DNA of 64,000 nucleotides from a virus (taxonomy: Duplodnaviria > Heunggongvirae > Uroviricota > Caudoviricetes). The stretch is from the IMG/VR virus record IMGVR_UViG_2671180984_000014. One strand, given 5' to 3'. This document shows positions 12,604 to 63,898 of this stretch, in pieces. Every line of letters begins with the position of its first letter. Within the stretch, counting starts at the first letter, position 1. The notes below the pieces were generated by a model. The model saw nothing but the letters and a program-made list of their open reading frames with translations. It was not told the origin of the DNA and did not search any database. The translations under genes were made by a program, and so were the position numbers.

Positions 12604-12739
12604 GTATTTTTAAGTCGCGAATGCTATCTTTTCGCATCATATTGACCTTTTAATCGTTCAGGCTTATAGTTCCGCCGTCGTAGCAAATTCTGCGACCGGG
12701 TTTAGCAGCCTGAATACTTACGCGGACAACCGCAGATTT

Positions 12740-12840
12740 CCGATATTGCGGTATTTTTGTGTCCGTAAACCACGTTACGCCCGAATTATGGTGGGGCGTG
12801 ATGGGGAGGCTTCGGCCTGCTGGTTTCGTAAGTGCCAGTC
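12740..12840 (+). ncRNA. c4: c4-type antisense immunity RNA (approximate bounds)
   Basis: Non-coding stretch between operator and icd containing block TTATGGTGGGGCGTGATGGGGAGGCTTCGGCCTGCTGGTTTCG, conserved in a second copy at 63759-63802; upstream hairpin plus T-run at 12730-12757. Confidence 0.35.
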
Positions 12841-12915
12841 TGCTAACCCCGTCACGTCCTGCCACCTGTTTAGCAGCGGGTCGCAGGTTGTTTATCAACT
12901 TACGAGGCCGTAACT

Positions 12916-16316: not shown

Positions 16317-16439
16317 TACAATCGTTGCGGGTGCTTGAGGCTATCTGCTTCAGGCATTACCCGAAAAGCAGATAGAAGAAAGCCCCAGATAACATTACGC
16401 GTCCTGCAAGACGCTTAACATTAATCTGAGGCCACATCT

Positions 16440-16646
16440 ATGCTTAGCATACGTAGATTAGCCTCTTACCGACCAAAAGGTCAAGGAGAAGCAGGCTATG
16501 AAGCAGCAAAAAGCGATGTTAATCGCTCTGATCGTCATCTGTTTAACCGTCATTGTGACGGCACTGGTAACGAGGAAAGACCTCTGCGAGGTACGAATCC
16601 GAACCGGCCAGACGGAGGTCACTGTCTTCACAGCCTACGAATCTGA
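16440..16646 (+). CDS. mok: mok-like overlapping reading frame of the hok locus
   Basis: 68-codon frame starting upstream of hok and overlapping it in another frame, the classical mok arrangement. Confidence 0.45.
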   Translation: MLSIRRLASYRPKGQGEAGYEAAKSDVNRSDRHLFNRHCDGTGNEERPLRGTNPNRPDGGHCLHSLRI

Positions 16647-29554: not shown

Positions 29555-30452
29555 GCACTGGAAAAACATTACTATTTATAAACTTTCTCGTGAGGCGGAT
29601 CTGACCGACTTAGAAGATAAAAAGAAAATGATCCTTTTCACGCCATGCGGTAGTCAGGATATGGCCAAGTTCGGTTTTGTATCGCCATTTGGTGATAATT
29701 CTGAAGTTATCGCTATGCATGGAAATGGTTTTATCCTTGTTGAAGCAAAGCGCGAAACAAAAATTCTTCCCCCGCCGGTTATCCAGCGAGCTATTCAAGA
29801 AAAAATTGAAAAACTTGAGCAAGAACAAGCGCGTAAACTGAAGAAAACAGAGAAGGACTCCCTGAAAGACGAAGTTCTGCATTCTCTTCTGCCACGGGCT
29901 TTTTCAAAGTTTTCTGTTATCCAGGCGATCTACGACGGTTCAACTAAACGTATCTATATCAATGCCAGCGCGCGGCAGGCAGAGGATATGCTCGCGCTTA
30001 TGCGTAAGTCTCTGGGTTCTCTTCCTGCTGTTTCCCTGAGTGTTGAAAATCCCATTGAATTAACGCTGACCGACTGGGTACGTGATGGTAGTGCTCCACA
30101 GGGATTTCAAATGGGGGATGCGGCAGAACTTAAGGCAGTGCTTGAGGATGGCGGTATTGCCCGAGTGAAAAAGCAGGATTTGGGAAGCGATGAAATTTCC
30201 ACACACCTGGAAGCTGGCAAGCTCGTCACTAAGTTGGCACTCGACTGGCAGAACCGCATTAAATTTACACTGGACCATAACTTCAGCCTTACCAGCGTCA
30301 AATTTGCGGATGAATTGCTTGAGCAGAACTCTGATATTGATAGTGAAGATGTTGCGCAGCGACTGGACGCAGATTTCTTCCTGTTGACCAGTGAAATTTC
30401 GTGCCTGGTTGATGCTCTGGTAAATGCCCTTGGCGGAGAGGCTAAGCAGTGA
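29547..30452 (+). CDS. hrdC: RdgC homolog (recombination-associated protein)
   Basis: [16 protein letters not shown]...[15 protein letters not shown]...[30 protein letters not shown] aligns along full length with E. coli RdgC; start set at internal ATG 29547. Confidence 0.8.
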
Positions 30453-33400
30453 AAGAGCTGTGCTATGGATCTGTTTGCAGTGGAATTGAAGCCGCGAGTA
30501 TTGCCTGGGAACCGTTGGGTATGCGTCCGGCGTGGTTTGCTGAAATCGAGCCTTTTCCATCGGCCGTTCTTGCGCTCCGCTGGCCCCATGTTGCCAACCT
30601 TGGCGACATGAAAAAACTTGCCAAAAAAGTCTTGGCTGGGGAAATCGAATCCCCTGACGTGCTCGTCGGGGGAACACCATGTTTTACCGCGGGGCATATG
30701 GTTCTTTGTAAAAATGGCTATAAACCAATAGAAAATGTTTGCCCTGGTGATTACGTAGTCAGTCATCTCGGGCGGTTACAACAAGTAAAAAGAGTTGGTT
30801 CAAAAATAGCTAATACGGGGTTACTTAATGCCGTTGGGCAGCCTTTAGGTATAAGAACAACCAATGACCATCCCTTCCTGGCTGTTCGGTGGAAAGCCCA
30901 AAACACCCGGAAAAATGGCACATATTTTAAGAGAGAGTTGTTGTCTGAACCGGAATGGCGAGCAGCATGTGATATGCCGGGATATCAATGGTGCGCTCTA
31001 ACTAATTTCAATATTGCATTTCCAGATATTTGTTCTCGGTTCTTGTCTGAAGAACAGGCTATGTATCTTGCGGGCGCTTATGTTGGCGATGGATATATTA
31101 GGAGATGGAGAGGTAAATCTAAGAAGGCGGTTGTTTTTGGCATAAATTGCCAGAAATTGAGAAAGTTTCATTGCCGCATACCAGAAAACATATTTTCCGT
31201 GGCAAGCGAAATCCGAGGGAGCATCAAAGTAACCTTGAATGATACGTGTTATGCCAATTGGCTTAATGAACATTTTGGCGAGTTAAGCCATGCTAAGCGT
31301 ATCCCTGCATGGGTGATGTCGCATCCATTGCGTCATGTGTTTTTACAAGGCTATCTTGATACTGATGGGACACCAAGTGGTAAAGCGGGATTTAGAATTA
31401 ATAGTGTTAGTTCTGCGCTTGCTTGGGGCGTTGCGGGGTTGTCACAGACTTGTGGTTATGTTTCTTCGGTCAGCTTTATTGAAGTTGAGCCCAAAAAAGT
31501 GATCGAGGATCGCGTGGTAAATCAACGGAATTATTATCAGGTAACAATCTGCCCGCAGAAATTGTCACGTAAATCAAGATTGGCTCATGGAATGCTTTTA
31601 CGAACAGTCAAAGAGTTTAAATCGGTAGGCCTAGATACTGTATACAACATAGAAGTCGAAGGTGATCATTCCTATATCCTCAATGGTGCGGTGGTCCATA
31701 ACTGTCAGGCATTCAGTATCGCGGGATTACGTGGTGGGCTTGATGATGAGCGTGGCGCGCTAACTTTAAAGTATGTGGAGCTTGCAAATGCAATTGACGA
31801 CAAACGGGCTGAGTCATTTCTCAAACCAGCCGTTATCGTCTGGGAAAATGTCCCAGGAGTCTTGTCATCGGCAGATAACGCCTTCGGATGTTTCCTTGCC
31901 GGATTGGCTGGAGAAGATGTGCCATTTGAACCAGGTGATCGACCTGAATCAGGAAAAAGCAACGCGTTCTGGCGGTGGGATGGCAAAACCGGTTGCCATG
32001 TTCCAAAGTGGCCGCAGTGTGGTTGTATTTATGGACCGCAGCGAAAAGTGGCCTGGAGAATCCTTGATGCCCAATACTTCGGAGTGGCACAACGACGCCG
32101 ACGCGTGTTTGTTGTCGCAAGTGCTCGAACAGATCTCGATCCCGCAACGGTACTTTTTGAGTTCGAAGGCGTGCGCCGGAATATTGCGCCGAGCAGAGGC
32201 GAGGGGAAGGAAACTACCAGATATACTTCAAACATCGCTATCAGAACTTGCGATGATACAAACATAATTGCCATGGCACATGGGCAAGGAGGGGCTGAGA
32301 TAAAAACCGATAATTCGGCACCAACTTTGACATGTAACCATGAAGCACCAATTGTATTGCTCGGCGACGGTAGAATGCGCCGTCTTACCCCTGTCGAATG
32401 TGAAAGGCTGCAAGGTTTTCCTGATTGGCATACGTTGATCCCTACGGAAAAGCGTAAAAAAGTTAATTCAGATGAACTGGCATATCTGCACAATCACTAT
32501 CCAGATTTAAGCGAAGAAGAGGCCGCAATGCTTGCAGCTGACGGACCGCGTTACAAAGCGATCGGCAATAGTATGGCAATACCAGTAATGCGCTGGATTG
32601 GCGATCGGATTACTAAGGCCGTATGTCGGCAGAAAGAAGGAAGTGAAACAAAAGAGCGAAAAGTTAAACCAGCGGCAGAATTCGAACGGTCCATATTCAA
32701 ATGGGCTGGTGGAAAATTTGGTGTTCTGGAACAAATCTTTCGCTATTTGCCAGAAGGGAAGCGCCTGATTGAACCTTTCGTTGGTGGCGGAGCTGTCTTC
32801 ATGAATGCCGGATACCAGGAAAATCTGCTAAATGATGTGAATGCTGACCTGATTAACTTTTACAAGACTCTGCAACGCGAGGCGCATTCACTTATCACTC
32901 TGGCACATCGTTTCTTCCAGGACTACAACACACAGGAAGGATACCTGGCAGTACGGAATGCGTTTAACAAACAAGTCTATGATGATTTACATCGCGCAGC
33001 GGCGTTTTTGTTCCTGAACCGACATTGTTTTAACGGATTGACGCGTTACAACCAGGCCGGTGAGTTCAATGTCGGTTATGGGAAGTATAAAACTCCGTAT
33101 TTCCCATTACAGGAGATGGAAGCCTTCCTCGGTGCGGAAGGGCGGTCTGAGTTTGTATGCGGTGATTTTGCAGCGGTGATTGAAGCTGCCGGAGAAGGAG
33201 ATGTCATCTTTTGCGATCCGCCGTATGAACCGCTTCCAAATACAGAGGGATTCACGAACTATTCCGGTCATGACTTTAAGTTTGAAGAGCAAAAACGCCT
33301 GGTGTCTCTGTTGACGGATGCTCATCGTCGAGGTGCAAAGGTTCTCATTACTAACAGTGGCGCGCCAAACATCAGAGAGCTTTATCATGACAGTGGCTTC

Positions 33401-33490
33401 AGAGTGGAACCTCTTTTTGCCAGACGTTCTGTGTCTTGTAAGGGGGACACTCGAGGTGTAGCTCATGACGTTTTGGGTATATTGCTCTAA
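30449..33490 (+). CDS. dmt: bifunctional DNA methyltransferase: N-terminal C5-cytosine MTase (intein-interrupted) fused to C-terminal Dam-like N6-adenine MTase
   Basis: GTG start overlapping hrdC stop; C5 motifs GGTP|[22 protein letters not shown]; Dam motifs KWAGGK and DPPY. Confidence 0.8.
30680..31702 (+). other. intein (341 aa) with LAGLIDADG homing-endonuclease core inside dmt
   Basis: Begins Cys ([20 protein letters not shown]), block [19 protein letters not shown] and [10 protein letters not shown], ends [21 protein letters not shown] followed by Cys+1. Confidence 0.8.
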
Positions 33491-33497
33491 TAAATTT
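33481..33497 (+). promoter_or_regulatory. C1-type operator, exact consensus ATTGCTCTAATAAATTT
   Basis: 17/17; precedes the tRNA/ban operon. Confidence 0.75.
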
Positions 33498-34162
33498 ATT
33501 AGTGTAATATTACCTCAATGAATCGTGATTTATAGAGCGATTTAGCTGTTAGCCGCGACAGGCGCGGCGGTAAGCATGGCTGGGCCTAGTCCTCCCAGAC
33601 AAACCACCGAGTTGCCAGGTTGACCATGCGCCTAAGTGGCAACGCCGAAGTGCGTTACGAGCGTCCAGTTTGCCCATCTTCGGGTGGGCGTTTTTTTCAG
33701 GGTTTTCGTCATGGTTAGCGACTTTGCGGCGGTTTAGAAACTGACCATTAAAGTAAATGCAAACGATGATCTGATGATGGTAGCGGCCTAAGAAGCCAGA
33801 TGCCATGGGGTATGAGTCGTCCCCCGTCAAAAAATCGACCGCAGAGTGTCCCCGTCTGTGTATTAGGGAACGGGGAGGCACAACAGGTAAGGGCGCTGGT
33901 GTGATTAACCAGATGAACGAGAAGGGGCCATCTGTTGGTCAGCGTCCTTTCCTGTTGCGTTTTCTTTTCAGCGTAACAGCGGTGCTTAACAGCACTTTGG
34001 GTACAGTTCCACGAATTTACGGGTATATCCCGTCATGCTGAAGGCGCTAATCACGCTGGAAGCCAGGGTTATGCATCCCCTGTTACCGAATTGCAGCCAG
34101 GGCGCGGTGCGCCGAAAAGCATACGGAGGTGGAAGCCCTCGCCGGAGACGTACCCGGCAAGT

Positions 34163-34237
34163 GATGGTGTAGCTCAGCGGTAGAGCAGTTGGCTGTTAAC
34201 CAACTGGTCGGTAGTTCGAATCCACCCACCATCGCCA
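34163..34237 (+). tRNA. tRNA-Asn (anticodon GTT)
   Basis: Acceptor GATGGTG/CACCATC, anticodon loop CTGTTAA, T-loop TTCGAAT, 3' GCCA. Confidence 0.8.
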
Positions 34238-34242
34238 CTTTA

Positions 34243-34328
34243 GGGGAGTTAGTCCGTAGGGGTAGCGGGGTAGACTGTAAATCTACTGTCATTGCGACTC
34301 GGGTGGTTCGACTCCATCACTCCCCACC
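34243..34328 (+). tRNA. tRNA-like element, anticodon loop CTGTAAA (GUA, Tyr-like) with long variable arm and irregular D-arm
   Basis: Acceptor GGGGAGT/ACTCCCC, perfect anticodon stem GTAGA/TCTAC, T-arm GGTGGTTCGACTCCATC, ACCA end; D-arm does not fold canonically. Confidence 0.4.
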
Positions 34329-34333
34329 ACATT

Positions 34334-34409
34334 GCCGATTTAGCTCAGTTGGTAGAGCAGTCGCTTTGTAAGCGAATGGTCAGCGGTTCGATCCCGTTAA
34401 TCGGCACCA
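34334..34409 (+). tRNA. tRNA-Thr (anticodon TGT)
   Basis: Acceptor GCCGATT/AATCGGC, D-arm GCTCAGTTGGTAGAGC, anticodon loop TTTGTAA, T-loop TTCGATC, CCA. Confidence 0.8.
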
Positions 34410-35282
34410 ACATAACAGGTAAGAGCATTCTCCCTTATGGGGCCTGGCTTAAATGCATCGAGTGCTCTTACCGTTGTGATGAAGTGCAGATCTTAGAAGC
34501 AACCAGAAGATAAGCATCTGGCTTCACAACATAAACCGCAGGAACGACCAATAAACGGTAGTCCGTATGGAGAACACCCCGTTGAGGAAGAGGCCTGGCC
34601 GGAACCGTAACCGGCGACTGGTAATGTGTGTAAATGGAGCGAAATATGTGGGCGTTTAACGGGATACGGGTTGTAACAGCGATTATTAACGGCGAACTTA
34701 AGTATTCACGTTTCGAGACAAATGAACGTGATGGGAAATGTATTGGTGTGCGGTTAGTAAGAGAATACGCATAACAACTACAACGTTGAGAACACTGGCG
34801 TAACGGGGTCATATCCCAATCTACGAATAAATGTTGCGTTGCCGCGTGACAACCAGTGTTCTCAACATTGTGGTGAATGCACAGGCTGATGTGCCGCAAC
34901 TACAGTAGTGCGCGCTTTGCGGGGCTTGCTACAACCCTGTGTCGGAGTTCAGCACCGACCATCACAGTTTGATTCTCTGGCATGAGCATAACGCTGAAAT
35001 AAGTCCAGTCTGGTGCGGTCTGATCACCCGCCGTTAGCTCCACGAAACGGAGCACGTAACAGGTAAGAGCATTCTCCTGTAACGGGTTCATATCCCAATC
35101 TACAGGTCCACCAAGAATGCTCTTTCCGTTGCGGTGAATGCGGCTAAGCGCACGCGGGGAAATGGTTATATCTGTCCATTATTTCTCCTTGTTTCCACGT
35201 CCACGGTGGATAACCAGCCAAAGGACACCGGGAGGAACCCGGCACCGCAGCTTTTTTATTCGTTAAATAATGGAGTGAGAGG

Positions 35283-35519
35283 ATGCAGAACAATCCGAAC
35301 AAATGTCGAACGCTATGGGTGCGGTTATATATTTATGCCGTCCTCTGTTTGATTGTGTCACTGGTTCTGTATGTTTGGCTTTTGCCAAATATGATCTCAT
35401 CTAACAGCACAATACTTGTATTGTTGGGAGTCCTTCTCGCGCTCATTTACCCGGCTTTCGCAGTAGTCTTTTTTCGTGAAAAAACCAGGAAATTAATTAA
35501 TGAAAAAAACGTTGATTAG
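35283..35519 (+). CDS. small membrane protein (78 aa)
   Basis: Two hydrophobic helices; coupled to downstream lipoprotein gene. Confidence 0.4.
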   Translation: MQNNPNKCRTLWVRLYIYAVLCLIVSLVLYVWLLPNMISSNSTILVLLGVLLALIYPAFAVVFFREKTRKLINEKNVD

Positions 35520-36327
35520 TGCAGCGATTATTTTGGGTTCTTTATGTCTGACCGGATGCGATCGGGTAGAGCCAGGTAACGTAGGGATCAAAGTAAATAA
35601 GCTGGGGGATGATAAAGGTATCGGTGAAGTAGTTGGCGTTGGTCGCTACTGGACAGGCTTGAATACTGAAGTTTATATCTTCCCGACCTTTAAGCAAATG
35701 AAGACATACGATGAGCCGTTCAGCTTCCAGATGAGCGACGGAACAACCATTGGTTACCACATCGGCGTAGCCTACAAGGTTGATCCAGCAAAAGTCACAA
35801 CGGTATTTCAGACCTATCGCAAAGGTGTAGATGATATTACTGATACCGATCTACGCCAGAAGGTTGCAGATGCTCTGAACCGATTAGCCAGCAAAATGAC
35901 CACCGACAAATTTATCGACGGTGGCAAATCTGAATTGCTTGATGCAGCCCTTAAAGACATTCAGGAAGAAATGACGCCAATCGGCATTCAGGTGATGAGC
36001 CTCTCTTATGTAGGTAAGCCAGAATACCCGCCAACAGTTATTGACAGTATTAACGCCAAAGTCACGGCAAACCAAAAAACCCTGCAACGCGAGCAAGAGG
36101 TCAAACAACGTGAAGCAGAGGCCAACATGCTGCGCGCGGAAGCTGCCGGACAGGCTGATGCTATTCGCACAAAAGCCCAGGCCGAAGCTGATGCCATTCG
36201 TTTACGTGGTGAAGCTCTGCGCCAGAACCCCGGTGTTATGGACTTGGAAGCGATCAACAAATGGAACGGTACATTACCGCAGTATATGACCAGTAATACC
36301 GCTGTTCCGTTTGTTCCGGTGAAATAA
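35500..36327 (+). CDS. SPFH/band-7 domain lipoprotein (275 aa)
   Basis: Lipobox LCLTGC; prohibitin/HflC-like core and Ala/Glu/Arg-rich coiled-coil tail. Confidence 0.6.
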   Translation: MKKTLISAAIILGSLCLTGCDRVEPGNVGIKVNKLGDDKGIGEVVGVGRYWTGLNTEVYIFPTFKQMKTYDEPFSFQMSDGTTIGYHIGVAYKVDPAKVTTVFQTYRKGVDDITDTDLRQKVADALNRLASKMTTDKFIDGGKSELLDAALKDIQEEMTPIGIQVMSLSYVGKPEYPPTVIDSINAKVTANQKTLQREQEVKQREAEANMLRAEAAGQADAIRTKAQAEADAIRLRGEALRQNPGVMDLEAINKWNGTLPQYMTSNTAVPFVPVK

Positions 36328-36354
36328 AAGCGTAAGCAAAATTGGCAGTAATCC

Positions 36355-36430
36355 GGCCCTTTAGCTCAGTGGTTAGAGCTGGCGACTCATAATCGCACGG
36401 TCACCGGTTCAAGTCCGGTAGGGGCCACCA
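36355..36430 (+). tRNA. tRNA-Ile2 type (anticodon CAT; could be read as Met without lysidine)
   Basis: Near-identical in architecture to E. coli ileX: acceptor GGCCCTT/AGGGGCC, anticodon loop CTCATAA, T-loop TTCAAGT, CCA. Confidence 0.8.
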
Positions 36431-36710
36431 TATTTGGTTGTAACACGGCGTCTGGCACATGCGTCGTTAGCGGTCTGGTGACGTTAAAGGGGTAACCTTT
36501 CCCCTAGCTCAGGCAACAAACCAGGTAGCCGGAATGTGCAAGCCCCGTTCATAGCGTCGGACTGCGGATTCACCATCCTGGCGATTCGGTGTGACAGCCG
36601 GGAAGAGTCCGGCGCATTAATCCTGATTTTCTGGTGATGACTCATATCGTTAGGAGTGATTTGAGTATGCCGATTATATCTGACATTCAGCACGCCTGGG
36701 TGGAGTGCTA

Positions 36711-38075
36711 ATGTCTGCATCCCCTCTTGAATCCATGCCAAATTCCCTTAGTGCAGAACAAGCTGTACTTGGTGGCTTAATGCTTGATAACTGCCGCTGG
36801 GATGAAGTTGCAGATCGTATAGTTGCTGATGATTTTTATACCAGTGCTCATCGTGAAATTTTCAGTGAGATGGAGAGGTTATTAAGTCATGGCAAACCGA
36901 TTGATTTGATAACACTTGCTGAAGCACTTGAACAGAACGGTAAATTAGAACGCGCCGGTGGTTTTGCGTACCTTGCGGAGATGTCAAAGAACACGCCCAG
37001 CGCGGCAAATATTTGTGCTTATGCGGATATCGTTCGTGAACGCGCGGTTGTTCGTGAAATGATTTCCGTCGCAAATGAAATAGCTGAAGCTGGATATGCG
37101 CAGGATGGCAGGGGCAGCAATGAATTGCTGGATATGGCCGAGCGCCGCGTTTTTGAAATAGCTGAAAAACGACAAAAGAGCGGTAGTGGTCCAAAAGATA
37201 TCGCCAGCATTCTCGATGCAACGGTATCTCGCATAGAAGAGTTGTTTCAGCGACCGCATGATGGTGTAACGGGGCTTGATACCGGATTTACCGATCTCAA
37301 TAAGAAGACGGCAGGACTTCAGGCGTCCGATCTCATTATTGTCGCCGCCCGCCCATCGATGGGGAAGACTACGTTTGCGATGAATCTCGTCGAAAATGCC
37401 GCAGTCCGTAACGATAAGCCCGTATTGGTTTTTAGCCTTGAGATGCCGAGCCACCAACTGATGATGCGCTCACTGGCTTCTCTTGCACGCGTTGATCAGA
37501 CTCGTATTCGAACAGGGCAACTTAACGACGAGGATTGGGCGCGGGTTTCTGGCGCAATGGGGATTCTGTTGGACAAGCAGAATATTTTTATTGATGACTC
37601 AAGCGCCCTAACACCTACAGAGCTTCGTTCCCGCGCTCGTCGTGTTTATAAAGAAAATGGTGGTTTGAGCATGATTATGATCGACTACCTGCAACTTATG
37701 CGCGTCCCCGAGCTGCAAGATAACCGAACGCTGGAAATTGCCGAGATTTCTCGCTCACTGAAGGCTTTGGCGAAGGAATTACAAGTACCGGTGGTGGCAT
37801 TGTCACAACTTAATCGATCGCTTGAACAGCGTGCGGACAAACGACCGGTAAATTCAGATTTACGTGAATCAGGAGCAATTGAGCAGGACGCAGACCTGAT
37901 CATGTTTCTGTATCGCGACGAAGTTTATCACCCGGATAGCGAAATGAAGGGCATTGCCGAGGTAATTATCGGAAAGCAACGAAATGGCCCAATTGGCACG
38001 GTGAGATTGGCTTTTAACGGCCAATACTCACGGTTTGATAACTATGCTGGTGCTGACTGGCAAGAGGATTATTAA
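36711..38075 (+). CDS. ban: DnaB-family replicative helicase (Ban)
   Basis: DnaB N-terminal domain, Walker A RPSMGKTTFAMN, RecA-like core; ATG 36711 preferred over GTG 36705. Confidence 0.85.
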   Translation: MSASPLESMPNSLSAEQAVLGGLMLDNCRWDEVADRIVADDFYTSAHREIFSEMERLLSHGKPIDLITLAEALEQNGKLERAGGFAYLAEMSKNTPSAANICAYADIVRERAVVREMISVANEIAEAGYAQDGRGSNELLDMAERRVFEIAEKRQKSGSGPKDIASILDATVSRIEELFQRPHDGVTGLDTGFTDLNKKTAGLQASDLIIVAARPSMGKTTFAMNLVENAAVRNDKPVLVFSLEMPSHQLMMRSLASLARVDQTRIRTGQLNDEDWARVSGAMGILLDKQNIFIDDSSALTPTELRSRARRVYKENGGLSMIMIDYLQLMRVPELQDNRTLEIAEISRSLKALAKELQVPVVALSQLNRSLEQRADKRPVNSDLRESGAIEQDADLIMFLYRDEVYHPDSEMKGIAEVIIGKQRNGPIGTVRLAFNGQYSRFDNYAGADWQEDY

Positions 38076-63580: not shown

Positions 63581-63699
63581 TGTTTTTTAGCTACCGATGT
63601 TACATTGAACCTGACCTCTTGCGCCTTGAGGCATTTTCGGTTTATGCTTATCAGGCACCTCATTAAAACGGGTGCCGGGATTGGCCTCCCGCTTAAGTC

Positions 63700-63815
63700 T
63701 AAGGCGATACAGACGCCGCTCGCGTCTTTTTTTGTATCGGCGTACACGCACACCTCTACAATGGTGGGCTGTATGGGGCTACCTTCGGGTAGGCTGGTTA
63801 CCTTGGACGCCAGTA
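63700..63815 (+). ncRNA. second c4-like antisense RNA (approximate bounds)
   Basis: Hairpin plus T-run at 63706-63731, then block CAATGGTGGGCTGTATGGGGCTACCTTCGGGTAGGCTGGTTACC homologous to 12786-12828. Confidence 0.35.
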
Positions 63816-63898
63816 AGGCCAACTCCGTACAGTCCACCGCCAGCAAGATTGGTCTCTTCTGCGGTGGTTACATACCAACGTCTAAGGAGGCTGCCAAT

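Follow-up and report, generated by a model that had tools for sequence, protein, structure and literature searches.

The stretch of DNA analysed here, 64,000 nt of the virus record IMGVR_UViG_2671180984_000014 and referred to below as the window, is that of a P1-like phage-plasmid. Positions 34410-35280, between the gene for tRNA-Thr and the next gene, very probably constitute a non-coding, structured RNA array of the plus strand, in which long hairpins (LHs) are followed by closed units (U units). On sequence grounds, this interval appears to be non-coding and to belong to the long leader of the ban operon, which C1 represses. Its modules are co-oriented, linked to tRNAs and under selection for pairing, the base of the hairpin stalk is conserved and no conserved open reading frame (ORF) is present. 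The best overall explanation, to which slightly better than even confidence is attached, is that the LH/U array is transcribed together with the tRNAs and acts as RNA punctuation of a precursor of tRNAs and small RNAs (sRNAs). The narrower proposal that RNase III and RNase P carry out this punctuation is more tentative and falls somewhat short of even. A preliminary description of the interval had noted exact repeats and strong hairpins, and had proposed processed small RNAs, tRNA-like pseudo-elements or RNase processing sites rather than coding DNA.

The elements of the array are as follows, with scores from covariance model (CM) R1 and folding energies with their z-scores given where available:

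LH0, 33878-33960, plus strand: long hairpin, upstream of the tRNAs, with the third copy of ACAGGTAAG; CM R1 37.7 bits, E 1.7e-9; -40.4 kcal/mol, z -4.06.
LH1, 34410-34479, plus strand: long hairpin abutting the CCA of tRNA-Thr, with copy 1 of ACAGGTAAGAGCATTCTCC; CM R1 36.3 bits; -33.5 kcal/mol, z -4.25.
U1, 34473-34530, plus strand: short closed unit in which GUUGUGAUG pairs with CUUCACAAC around a hairpin; the segment is also found in SSU5-like and Klebsiella plasmids.
S1, 34531-34615, plus strand: conserved spacer whose 3' end is the leader hairpin GCCGGAACCGUAACCGGC; kept in all P1-like relatives.
Insertion, 34616-34776, plus strand: lineage-specific segment of 161 bp, absent from P1, P7, D6, SJ46 and RCS47.
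LH2, 34778-34873, plus strand: long hairpin whose loop holds copy 1 of GTAACGGGGTCATATCCCAATCTAC, a T-arm-like mini-hairpin; CM R1 41.9 bits, E 7e-11; -46.7 kcal/mol, z -4.72.
U2, 34867-34968, plus strand: closed unit of the same architecture as U3, with a 9-bp closing helix AUUGUGGUG/CAUCACAGU and a terminal 5-bp hairpin; supported by paralogue covariation.
S2, 34969-35053, plus strand: spacer occupying the slot of tRNA-Ser(UGA) in P7, D6 and several plasmids; its 3' end is the leader hairpin GCUCCACGAAACGGAGC.
LH3, 35054-35134, plus strand: long hairpin combining the LH1 5' arm and the LH2 loop motif (copy 2 of each); CM R1 33.6 bits; -36.1 kcal/mol, z -4.87.
U3, 35128-35251, plus strand, with a U-run at 35252-35257: STnc100/PasD-like unit closed by GUUGCGGUG/CACCGCAGC; fold z -2.5.

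Every LH starts with CAYAAC and finishes with GUUGYG. The stalk is 20-25 bp long, its bottom 6-7 bp (5'-CAYAAC...GUUGYG-3') being conserved in sequence and frequently carrying a bulged A, and its upper part varies freely by covariation. The top is variable (20-70 nt) and in several versions contains a T-arm-like mini-hairpin; between 21 and 31 positions are paired in each LH. An arm-only covariance model detects exactly four copies in 64 kb, all in the ban leader, and scores each of them 10-17 bits higher on the plus strand. In the predicted fold, the stem of LH1 begins at 34408, within the CCA end of tRNA-Thr, and pairs the last two CCA bases. When judged against the T-loop consensus UUCRANY, exact strings are present in the P1-type LH1 (GGGTTCGAATCCC) and in the LH type of loci L014 and L139 (AGAGTTCGACTCT), and LH2 and LH3 of the window carry the degenerate GGGKTCATATCCC. 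ARAGORN and the Rfam tRNA model, even at E<=10, matched no LH or U unit and returned only the four true tRNAs. What survives of the proposed tRNA-like pseudo-elements is the T-arm-like mini-hairpins of the loops and the acceptor/T-arm-like form of the U units, and not a tRNA or pseudo-tRNA call.

The repeats first noted in the interval are paralogous parts of these hairpins. The 19-mer ACAGGTAAGAGCATTCTCC, exact at 34415 and 35059, is the 5' arm common to LH1 and LH3; it has no further copy with up to three mismatches in 64 kb and was recovered in 0 of 100 shuffles. The 25-mer GTAACGGG(G/T)TCATATCCCAATCTAC, at 34800 and 35079 where none is expected by chance and likewise lacking any further copy with up to three mismatches, is the loop mini-hairpin GTAACGGGKTCATATCCCAATCTAC common to LH2 and LH3, and the core ACAGGTAAG recurs at 33884 inside CACAACAGGTAAGGGC (33879-33894). 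These repeats are just as the preliminary description gave them, as is the start of the first repeat directly 3' of tRNA-Thr, whose end ARAGORN places at 34409. Strong hairpins are likewise confirmed: relative to dinucleotide-shuffled sequence, four elements, LH0 among them, fold with z between -4.1 and -4.9. The fold predictions, covariance-model scans and comparison among P1-like genomes that it proposed have been carried out, the former two recovering the four long hairpins, all in the ban leader, and the last, widened to SSU5-like and Klebsiella plasmids, showing that arm pairing is kept through double changes. Absent from that description were a further repeat, the 3' tail GTTGYGRTGAAKGC after each hairpin, as well as the unity of the hairpin family, the STnc100 likeness of the last ~125 nt and the gene annotation of P1. 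Folded as a whole, the interval reaches -304 kcal/mol (z -4.1) on the plus strand versus -271 kcal/mol (z -2.7) on the minus strand. Two other readings of the hairpins were discarded: they are not followed by a U-tract as terminators or attenuators would be, only 33671-33697 and 35252-35257 being terminator-like, and a likeness to the rrn/lambda boxA (TGCTCTTT, GCTCTTA in LH 3' arms) was judged post hoc and is unlikely because the string is buried in the stem.

Comparison among relatives gives further evidence for structure. Long hairpins of many sequence types occur in P1, P7, D6, SJ46, RCS47 and many P1-like plasmids, and also in SSU5-like E. coli plasmids and in Klebsiella and Citrobacter phage-plasmids. 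Covariation was assessed in 31 distinct arm sets from P1, P7, D6, SJ46, RCS47, SSU5-like and Klebsiella plasmids, with shuffled and slid arms for comparison:

Cells paired: observed 95.2%, shuffled 73%, slid 35-52%; as the set was gathered with a hairpin finder, this absolute percentage is inflated and partly reflects selection of the sequences, which tells against a literal reading of it.
Pairs changed on both sides: observed 18 of 20, shuffled 12.9, slid 4-8.
Covariation score: observed 0.68, shuffled 0.24, slid 0.10-0.16.

The informative part of this set is the variety of pair types at homologous positions, and such compensatory changes point to selection on structure rather than on sequence identity. 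Conservation of sequence is confined to the bottom of the stalk (A5, A6, C7, U47, U48 and G51). The hairpins are also oriented. In the tRNA sense, a strand-neutral hairpin finder gives 111 G.U versus 66 A.C pairs, and 16 of the 22 distinct types of LH are more stable as the sense RNA (mean -2.4 kcal/mol; p 0.016 by the Wilcoxon test), an asymmetry that is modest overall (p about 0.02-0.05) and to that extent counts against the RNA reading.

The hairpins are also closely linked to tRNAs. Among 322 long hairpins detected by the strand-neutral finder across 1.28 Mb of related loci, 249 have a tRNA no more than 1.5 kb away. Long hairpins nearly always adjoin tRNAs and share their strand, in many loci an LH lies 0-3 nt directly 3' of tRNA-Thr or tRNA-Ser, and in relatives LHs fill the same slots of the array as tRNAs. 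Of 5,426 complete E. coli genomes, 818 contain a match to the interval; P1-type plasmids account for most of these, and others are in chromosomal prophages. The LH family has no match in Rfam: scans of the window and its relatives, at the gathering score and at E<=10, returned tRNAs, sub-threshold STnc100 and spurious microRNA-precursor matches on the hairpins. Likewise, no description of the LH hairpins was found in the searchable literature. In the Citrobacter freundii plasmid NZ_CP056338 (locus L017, 3150-3290), a tRNA-like sequence directly follows a long hairpin. Read by eye, it has a 7-bp acceptor stem (the GTTGTGG/CGCTGCAAC region), opens like a D arm, contains a canonical T arm in GGGTTCGAGTCCC and has ~60 extra nt in mid-sequence; it receives no ARAGORN call and may be an intron-containing or otherwise unusual tRNA.

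These data bear directly on the possibility that the array is the decaying debris of former tRNA and sRNA genes, now without function. Scraps that look tRNA-derived, namely T-arm-like and D-arm-like strings, do occur in the interval, modules are dispensable in some relatives, and the P1 genes annotated here are non-essential by CRISPR interference. However, debris would not hold stems of 20-25 bp through double substitutions in three phage lineages, to hold a stalk base conserved in sequence, or to stay only on the tRNA strand of lytic-operon leaders, and this explanation is considered very unlikely.

The U units have a common plan of their own. U1-U3 follow LH1-LH3, and each closes with a helix of 9 bp (GUUGYGRUG/CAYCRCARC) whose 3' strand directly adjoins a hairpin of 5 bp; both helices are kept by compensatory changes in six paralogues and orthologues. 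As modelled, the topology resembles that of an acceptor stem with its T arm. The 9-mer GTTGYGRTG is not enriched across the window (66 occurrences versus 55 expected) and its concentration is local only, with eight in 870 bp. A perfect 12-nt complement, GAAGCCAGATGC/GCATCTGGCTTC, joins 33792-33803, after the stop of the tmRNA-like tag described below, to 34514-34525 in the hairpin of U1, 710 nt away, and could reflect either chance or long-range pairing. Among the spacers, S1 shares 93% identity with a segment after tRNA-Met in a Citrobacter plasmid. The 161-bp insertion is present at >=99% identity only in 47 E. coli plasmids and phage vB_EcoM-Ro157c2YLVW (hereafter Ro157c2YLVW), the plasmids being P1-like and associated with Shiga toxin-producing E. 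coli, and no source was found for it beyond its own lineage. It contains a possible plus-strand ORF of 42 aa (34646-34774) with a GGAG Shine-Dalgarno sequence and a match to PHROG 8025 (E 7e-25), for which PGAP calls no gene.

In databases, this part of P1 is presented differently, as two minus-strand genes encoding the putative lipoprotein Plp and the protein Upl, in which case the repeats would be incidental. The P1 record NC_005856 annotates plp (69472-69849) and upl (69850-70041), RCS47 carries the same annotation, and the window has minus-strand ORFs to fit them at 34468-34899 (143 aa, starting with TTG) and 34900-35091 (63 aa). Upl matches PHROG 14500, a family made up of this annotated ORF itself. 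Comparison of frame, start and stop in close relatives shows that neither is a conserved reading frame. The plp gene has a TTG start and in P1 runs antisense into tRNA-Thr; in the window its residues 1-41 and 42-93 lie in different frames, the insert having shifted the frame (161 = 3x53+2), and it is likewise split across frames in P7, RCS47 and several plasmids, whilst in SJ46 its first 25 residues are gone. The ATG of upl lies in the loop of LH3, where a 13-nt deletion removes it in the 99.3%-identical Ro157c2YLVW, and in four loci only residues 43-63, the last 21 codons, remain because tRNA-Ser occupies the rest. Pfam has no match for either protein and PHROG none for Plp, no promoter-like site was found on the minus strand (33400-36800), and the genes are absent both from the later annotation of P7 and from RefSeq/PGAP annotation even of 100%-identical plasmids. 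The coding reading is thus largely refuted by comparative evidence, and its probability is put at next to nothing. The earlier statement that the interval lacks a convincing ORF holds with respect to conservation, although ORFs of 143 and 63 aa, annotated as plp and upl in P1, are present on the minus strand. The accompanying view that this is structured non-coding RNA on the tRNA strand is borne out by the broken, frame-shifted or truncated state of plp and upl in close relatives.

A further alternative is that the repeats act as DNA, as recombination substrates or cassette boundaries akin to attC sites or miniature inverted-repeat transposable elements (MITEs), shuffling tRNA and sRNA modules without any function as RNA. 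Mosaicism is pronounced here, and since the breakpoints seen when relatives are compared coincide with the repeats, these are recombinogenic. SJ46 lacks LH2-U2-S2 and the 5' half of LH3 through recombination exactly between the two 25-nt loop repeats, and RCS47-type genomes carry a ~215-bp extra segment, an additional LH with a U unit, that is flanked on either side by the LH1 5' arm. In addition, tRNA-Tyr, tRNA-Ser and tRNA-Arg each occur in some genomes and are missing from others with much the same flanking sequence. The AAC...GTT ends of the hairpins are reminiscent of the RYYYAAC/GTTRRRY cores of integron attC sites. Despite this, the pairing is kept by compensatory changes as the sequence drifts, the strand is biased toward the tRNA sense and the bulged A is invariably on the 5' arm. 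Furthermore, the breakpoints of several tRNA gains and losses lie within tRNA sequences and not at LHs. Neither class of element provides a match in detail. The 5' ends are CAYAAC-like, and the 3' core reads GTTGYGR rather than GTTRRRY, its fifth base being a pyrimidine. No target-site duplications surround the hairpins, no direct repeats flank them by eye, and instead of a near-identical dispersed set there are four copies in 64 kb, in one leader of one operon, with differing loops. A role purely as DNA is hence regarded as distinctly unlikely.

The genomic setting is that of P1. Over 33500-35500, the window matches E. coli plasmid NZ_AP027178 at 100% identity, Ro157c2YLVW at 99.3% and phage P1 at ~95% across 76% of that length, and the gene order (dmt-Pban-tRNAs-...-trnI-ban) is as in the annotated P1 record. 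Upstream of the interval, the following features were located:

End of dmt, 33490, plus strand: placed by P1 synteny.
Operator and promoter, 33478-33509, plus strand: bivalent C1 operator and Pban promoter, the driver of the whole unit, with the inverted repeat TATATTGCTCTAATAAATT..., aligned to P1 Obanab/P1ban/P2ban.
'dicF-like' region (the P1 label), 33605-33697, plus strand: P1 misc_feature 68791-68892 maps here.
Intrinsic terminator, 33671-33697: stem at 33671-33690 followed by a T-run, closing the 'dicF-like' region, from a terminator scan.
tmRNA-like 5' fragment, 33700-33791, plus strand: includes, at 33759-33791, a tag frame of 10 codons that reads ANDDLMMVAA before its stop codon.
tRNA-Asn(GTT), tRNA-Tyr(GTA) and tRNA-Thr(TGT), 34163-34409, plus strand: found by ARAGORN and the Rfam tRNA model.

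Downstream lie, in order, an ORF for a 78-aa membrane protein, a gene for an SPFH lipoprotein, tRNA-Met(CAT) and ban. No sigma-70-like promoter was found in 33400-36800 when both strands were scanned.

The tRNA complement of this leader differs between relatives. Thus, tRNA-Tyr(GTA), at 34243-34329 between tRNA-Asn and tRNA-Thr, is absent in P1, and relatives have, instead, tRNA-Ser(UGA) and/or tRNA-Arg(UCU), so that backbones which are near-identical differ in their tRNAs and the phage tRNA set is variable. The Asn/Thr tRNA pair of the window shares 76% identity with the tRNA cluster of phage N4. In the 369-kb E. coli plasmid NZ_CP017632, the ban leader is interrupted by a gene for a TnpB-family RNA-guided endonuclease. 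The dmt gene of the window (30449-33490, plus strand) encodes 1013 aa versus 754 aa in P1; an intein-like insert, with Hint_2 and LAGLIDADG_3 at residues ~77-361, lies within its C5-cytosine methylase domain. Elsewhere in the window, matches reaching the Rfam gathering score (12664-12869, 16329-16503 and 63655-63844) represent two C4 antisense RNAs, c4 a1/b1 targets, isrK and the sok antitoxin RNA, which are usual for the immunity and maintenance regions of P1-like elements.

The fragment upstream of the tRNAs recalls transfer-messenger RNA (tmRNA). The Rfam tmRNA_permuted model scores it at 24 bits, far short of the gathering score (47), with an alignment of UAAAUGCAAACGAU...GUAGC-GCCUAA. Its tag ANDDLMMVAA may be compared with the E. 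coli SsrA tag ANDENYALAA, and, as in tmRNA, an A-rich UAAAU precedes the frame, of which GCAAACGA forms the first codons. Both the context of a resume codon and a hydrophobic C-terminus are present. Seven tag variants were found in four phage groups (P1-like, lambdoid, SSU5-like and Klebsiella), all of 10 codons and ending in VAA, AAA, MAA or AVA; homologues of the tag frame lie at the following positions:

L139, 3640-3672: tag-frame homologue.
L140, 3638-3670: tag-frame homologue.
L015, 1816-1848: tag-frame homologue.
L018, 2183-2215: tag-frame homologue.

A complete tmRNA around the tag frame was rejected. A tRNA-like domain (acceptor stem with G.U, T arm and CCA) was not found, ARAGORN called no tmRNA in the window or any locus, and the P2-like helix of the P1-type copy is not kept in lambdoid and SSU5-type copies. 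No mention of the tag peptides was found in the searchable literature.

Returning to the punctuation of a tRNA and sRNA precursor, the proposed mechanism would operate as follows. The stalks of 20-25 bp would serve as sites for a double-strand-specific endonuclease, most likely RNase III, for which stalk length makes it the obvious candidate, and the U units and tRNAs would perhaps be substrates of RNase P or RNase E, to which the U units are likened on account of their acceptor/T-arm-like topology. Such cuts would split the polycistronic precursor into tRNAs and small RNAs and would define or protect their ends. At the junction with tRNA-Thr, where the last two CCA bases are paired in LH1, either cleavage or unfolding would be needed to free the end. 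E. coli RNase III requires stems of 20 bp or more, and it has a role in processing of the phage T4 tRNA cluster and in maturation of DicF; the precursor of the P1 C4 RNA is a substrate of RNase P.

Several points weigh against this proposal, in addition to the qualifications on pairing percentage and strand asymmetry given above. RNase III has no positive sequence signature, and processing of the interval is wholly something that we infer; no P1 transcript map covering it was found in the searchable literature. The strong terminator at 33671-33697 stands between Pban and the array. The base of each LH and the closing helix of the U unit use the same 6 nt, which makes the two pairings mutually exclusive, so that they compete and cannot both form fully. 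The deletion in SJ46 and the loss of 13 nt of the LH3 loop in Ro157c2YLVW indicate that individual modules are dispensable. Finally, P1 showed no defect in lytic growth when trnT, plp, upl, tciA-C and ban were silenced by CRISPR interference (PMC10695390).

The hairpins and U units could alternatively be trans-acting products in their own right, as stable small RNAs or tRNA mimics, whether sponges or regulators in the manner of STnc100 and PasD, or decoys of tRNA-binding factors of the host or of defence nucleases that target tRNAs. U3 is kin to a known prophage sRNA family, T-loop-like mini-hairpins (GGGTTCGAATCCC, AGAGTTCGACTCT and GGGKTCATATCCC) recur in LH loops, and U units are acceptor/T-arm-like in topology. 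The array also travels with variable phage tRNAs (Asn, Tyr, Thr, Ser and Arg) and the tmRNA-like fragment, and is conserved in three temperate-phage lineages. However, LH loops differ between types and only the stalk base is conserved, a pattern more in keeping with a site that is recognised or cut than with a sequence that acts in trans. Moreover, neither ARAGORN nor the Rfam tRNA model found any LH to be tRNA-like, the match to YrlA covers tRNAs only, and SJ46 and Ro157c2YLVW lost modules without obvious cost. This alternative is considered unlikely. A broader and similarly improbable scenario is that the lytic leaders of P1-like, SSU5-like and lambdoid phages share a portable 'non-coding RNA island' of LHs with the conserved CAYAAC/GUUGYG base, STnc100-like units of tRNA-like topology, variable tRNAs and a truncated tmRNA mimic whose 10-codon tag is conserved, and that this island, beyond passive processing, actively manipulates the RNA machinery of the host in the course of lytic growth; candidate targets would include RNase III and RNase P, tRNA-modifying or tRNA-cleaving defence enzymes and SmpB/trans-translation.

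Although P1 is among the best-studied phages, database records still show ~0.9 kb of it as a pair of hypothetical genes. On the comparative evidence, plp and upl should be withdrawn in favour of structured RNA modules, and the LH array is grouped here with phage non-coding processing and sRNA modules. The LH itself is a candidate RNA family, apparently undescribed, which is common and has unusually clear covariation. Through it, the ban leader of P1 is linked with the late leader between Q and holin in lambdoid and Stx phages, where virulence-associated sRNAs are known to cluster. Should the stalks be processing signals, they would account for the release of phage tRNAs and sRNAs from a single precursor; should they be mimics, they, and likewise the tmRNA-like fragment, might bear on phage counter-defence against tRNA-targeting systems.

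These modules can be compared with several known systems. Like tRNAs (RF00005), LHs occupy tRNA slots and some hold T-arm-like hairpins in their loops, and the U units share the acceptor/T-arm-like coaxial topology; unlike tRNAs, neither has a cloverleaf, an anticodon arm or CCA. YrlA (RF02553) resembles an LH in joining a long stem to a tRNA-like top, but a YrlA or Y-RNA-like identity was rejected, the sole match (25.6 bits, gathering score 69) lying over real tRNAs. Integron attC sites are, like LHs, imperfect palindromes of 60-120 nt with a 5' end in ...AAC, a 3' end in GTT... and variable 'cassettes' between them. In contrast to attC, the LH forms one long, almost perfect helix that lacks the R/L-box and spacer arrangement, and the part of the 'cassettes' is taken here by the tRNAs and sRNAs of a transcribed leader. 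The flanking genes (dmt, the membrane ORF, the SPFH lipoprotein and ban) showed no integron integrase among them, the rest of the window being unscreened and no intI-directed search having been made.

LHs also resemble the stalks cut by RNase III in rRNA operons, early transcripts of T7, the T4 tRNA cluster and dicBF/DicF, since these too are imperfect, at least 20 bp long and punctuate a polycistronic precursor, and they enclose or abut the RNA that is released, as LHs do. The start of the P1 leader, annotated as 'dicF-like', recalls dicBF/DicF. LHs have the length associated with RNase III (at least 20 bp, mostly Watson-Crick, about two turns), and cleavage itself is a prediction of the model. 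Two differences are apparent: the conserved base CAYAAC/GUUGYG is not a known RNase III determinant, and LHs enclose a short variable top rather than a large RNA.

U3 in turn is compared with the prophage sRNA STnc100 (RF02076), which it matches at 38.0 bits (gathering score 47, E 6e-7) over model positions 31-147 of 206. Shared features include the closing helix, GGUGAAU, UAACCAG and the CACCGGGAGGNACCCGGCACC hairpin, and the order of the outer helix, the 5' hairpin and the 3' CCGGG...CCCGG hairpin is kept, in agreement with the minimum free energy fold. Model positions 1-30 and 148-206 are unmatched in U3, and the host of STnc100 is a lambdoid prophage whereas that of U3 is a P1-type phage-plasmid. 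By sequence, U3 is accordingly a relative of STnc100 and not a member under the Rfam rule, and U1 and U2 resemble STnc100 in architecture only. Both STnc100 and U3 stand at the end of a non-coding stretch in the leader of a phage lytic operon. STnc100 and the PasA, PasC and PasD sRNAs are encoded in the Q-holin late leader (bioRxiv 10.64898/2026.05.13.724894; PMC12370729), with STnc100 lying 75 nt downstream of stx2 in Stx2 phages (PMC12370729), PasD lying <10 kb from the antiterminator Q gene, and pasA, pasC and pasD1 adjoining the holin/lysozyme operon (bioRxiv 10.64898/2026.05.13.724894).

This resemblance extends to the hairpins. The interval has 235 matches on E. coli chromosomes, LH1-like hairpins included, and the sites located in lambdoid prophages, none of which carries RefSeq annotation, are:

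L139, 3500-4004, and L140, 3498-3856: chromosomal lambdoid LH sites next to a homologue of the tmRNA-like fragment.
L143, 10166-10225 (NC_000913.3, 1641166-1641225), minus strand: K-12 Qin LH, a single weaker copy between cspB and essQ.

In two prophages that were examined, the LHs lie in the ~1-kb gap between the Q antiterminator and holin genes, the first copy directly after the terminator tR'. The P1 ban leader and the lambdoid late leader thus draw upon a shared pool of non-coding modules.

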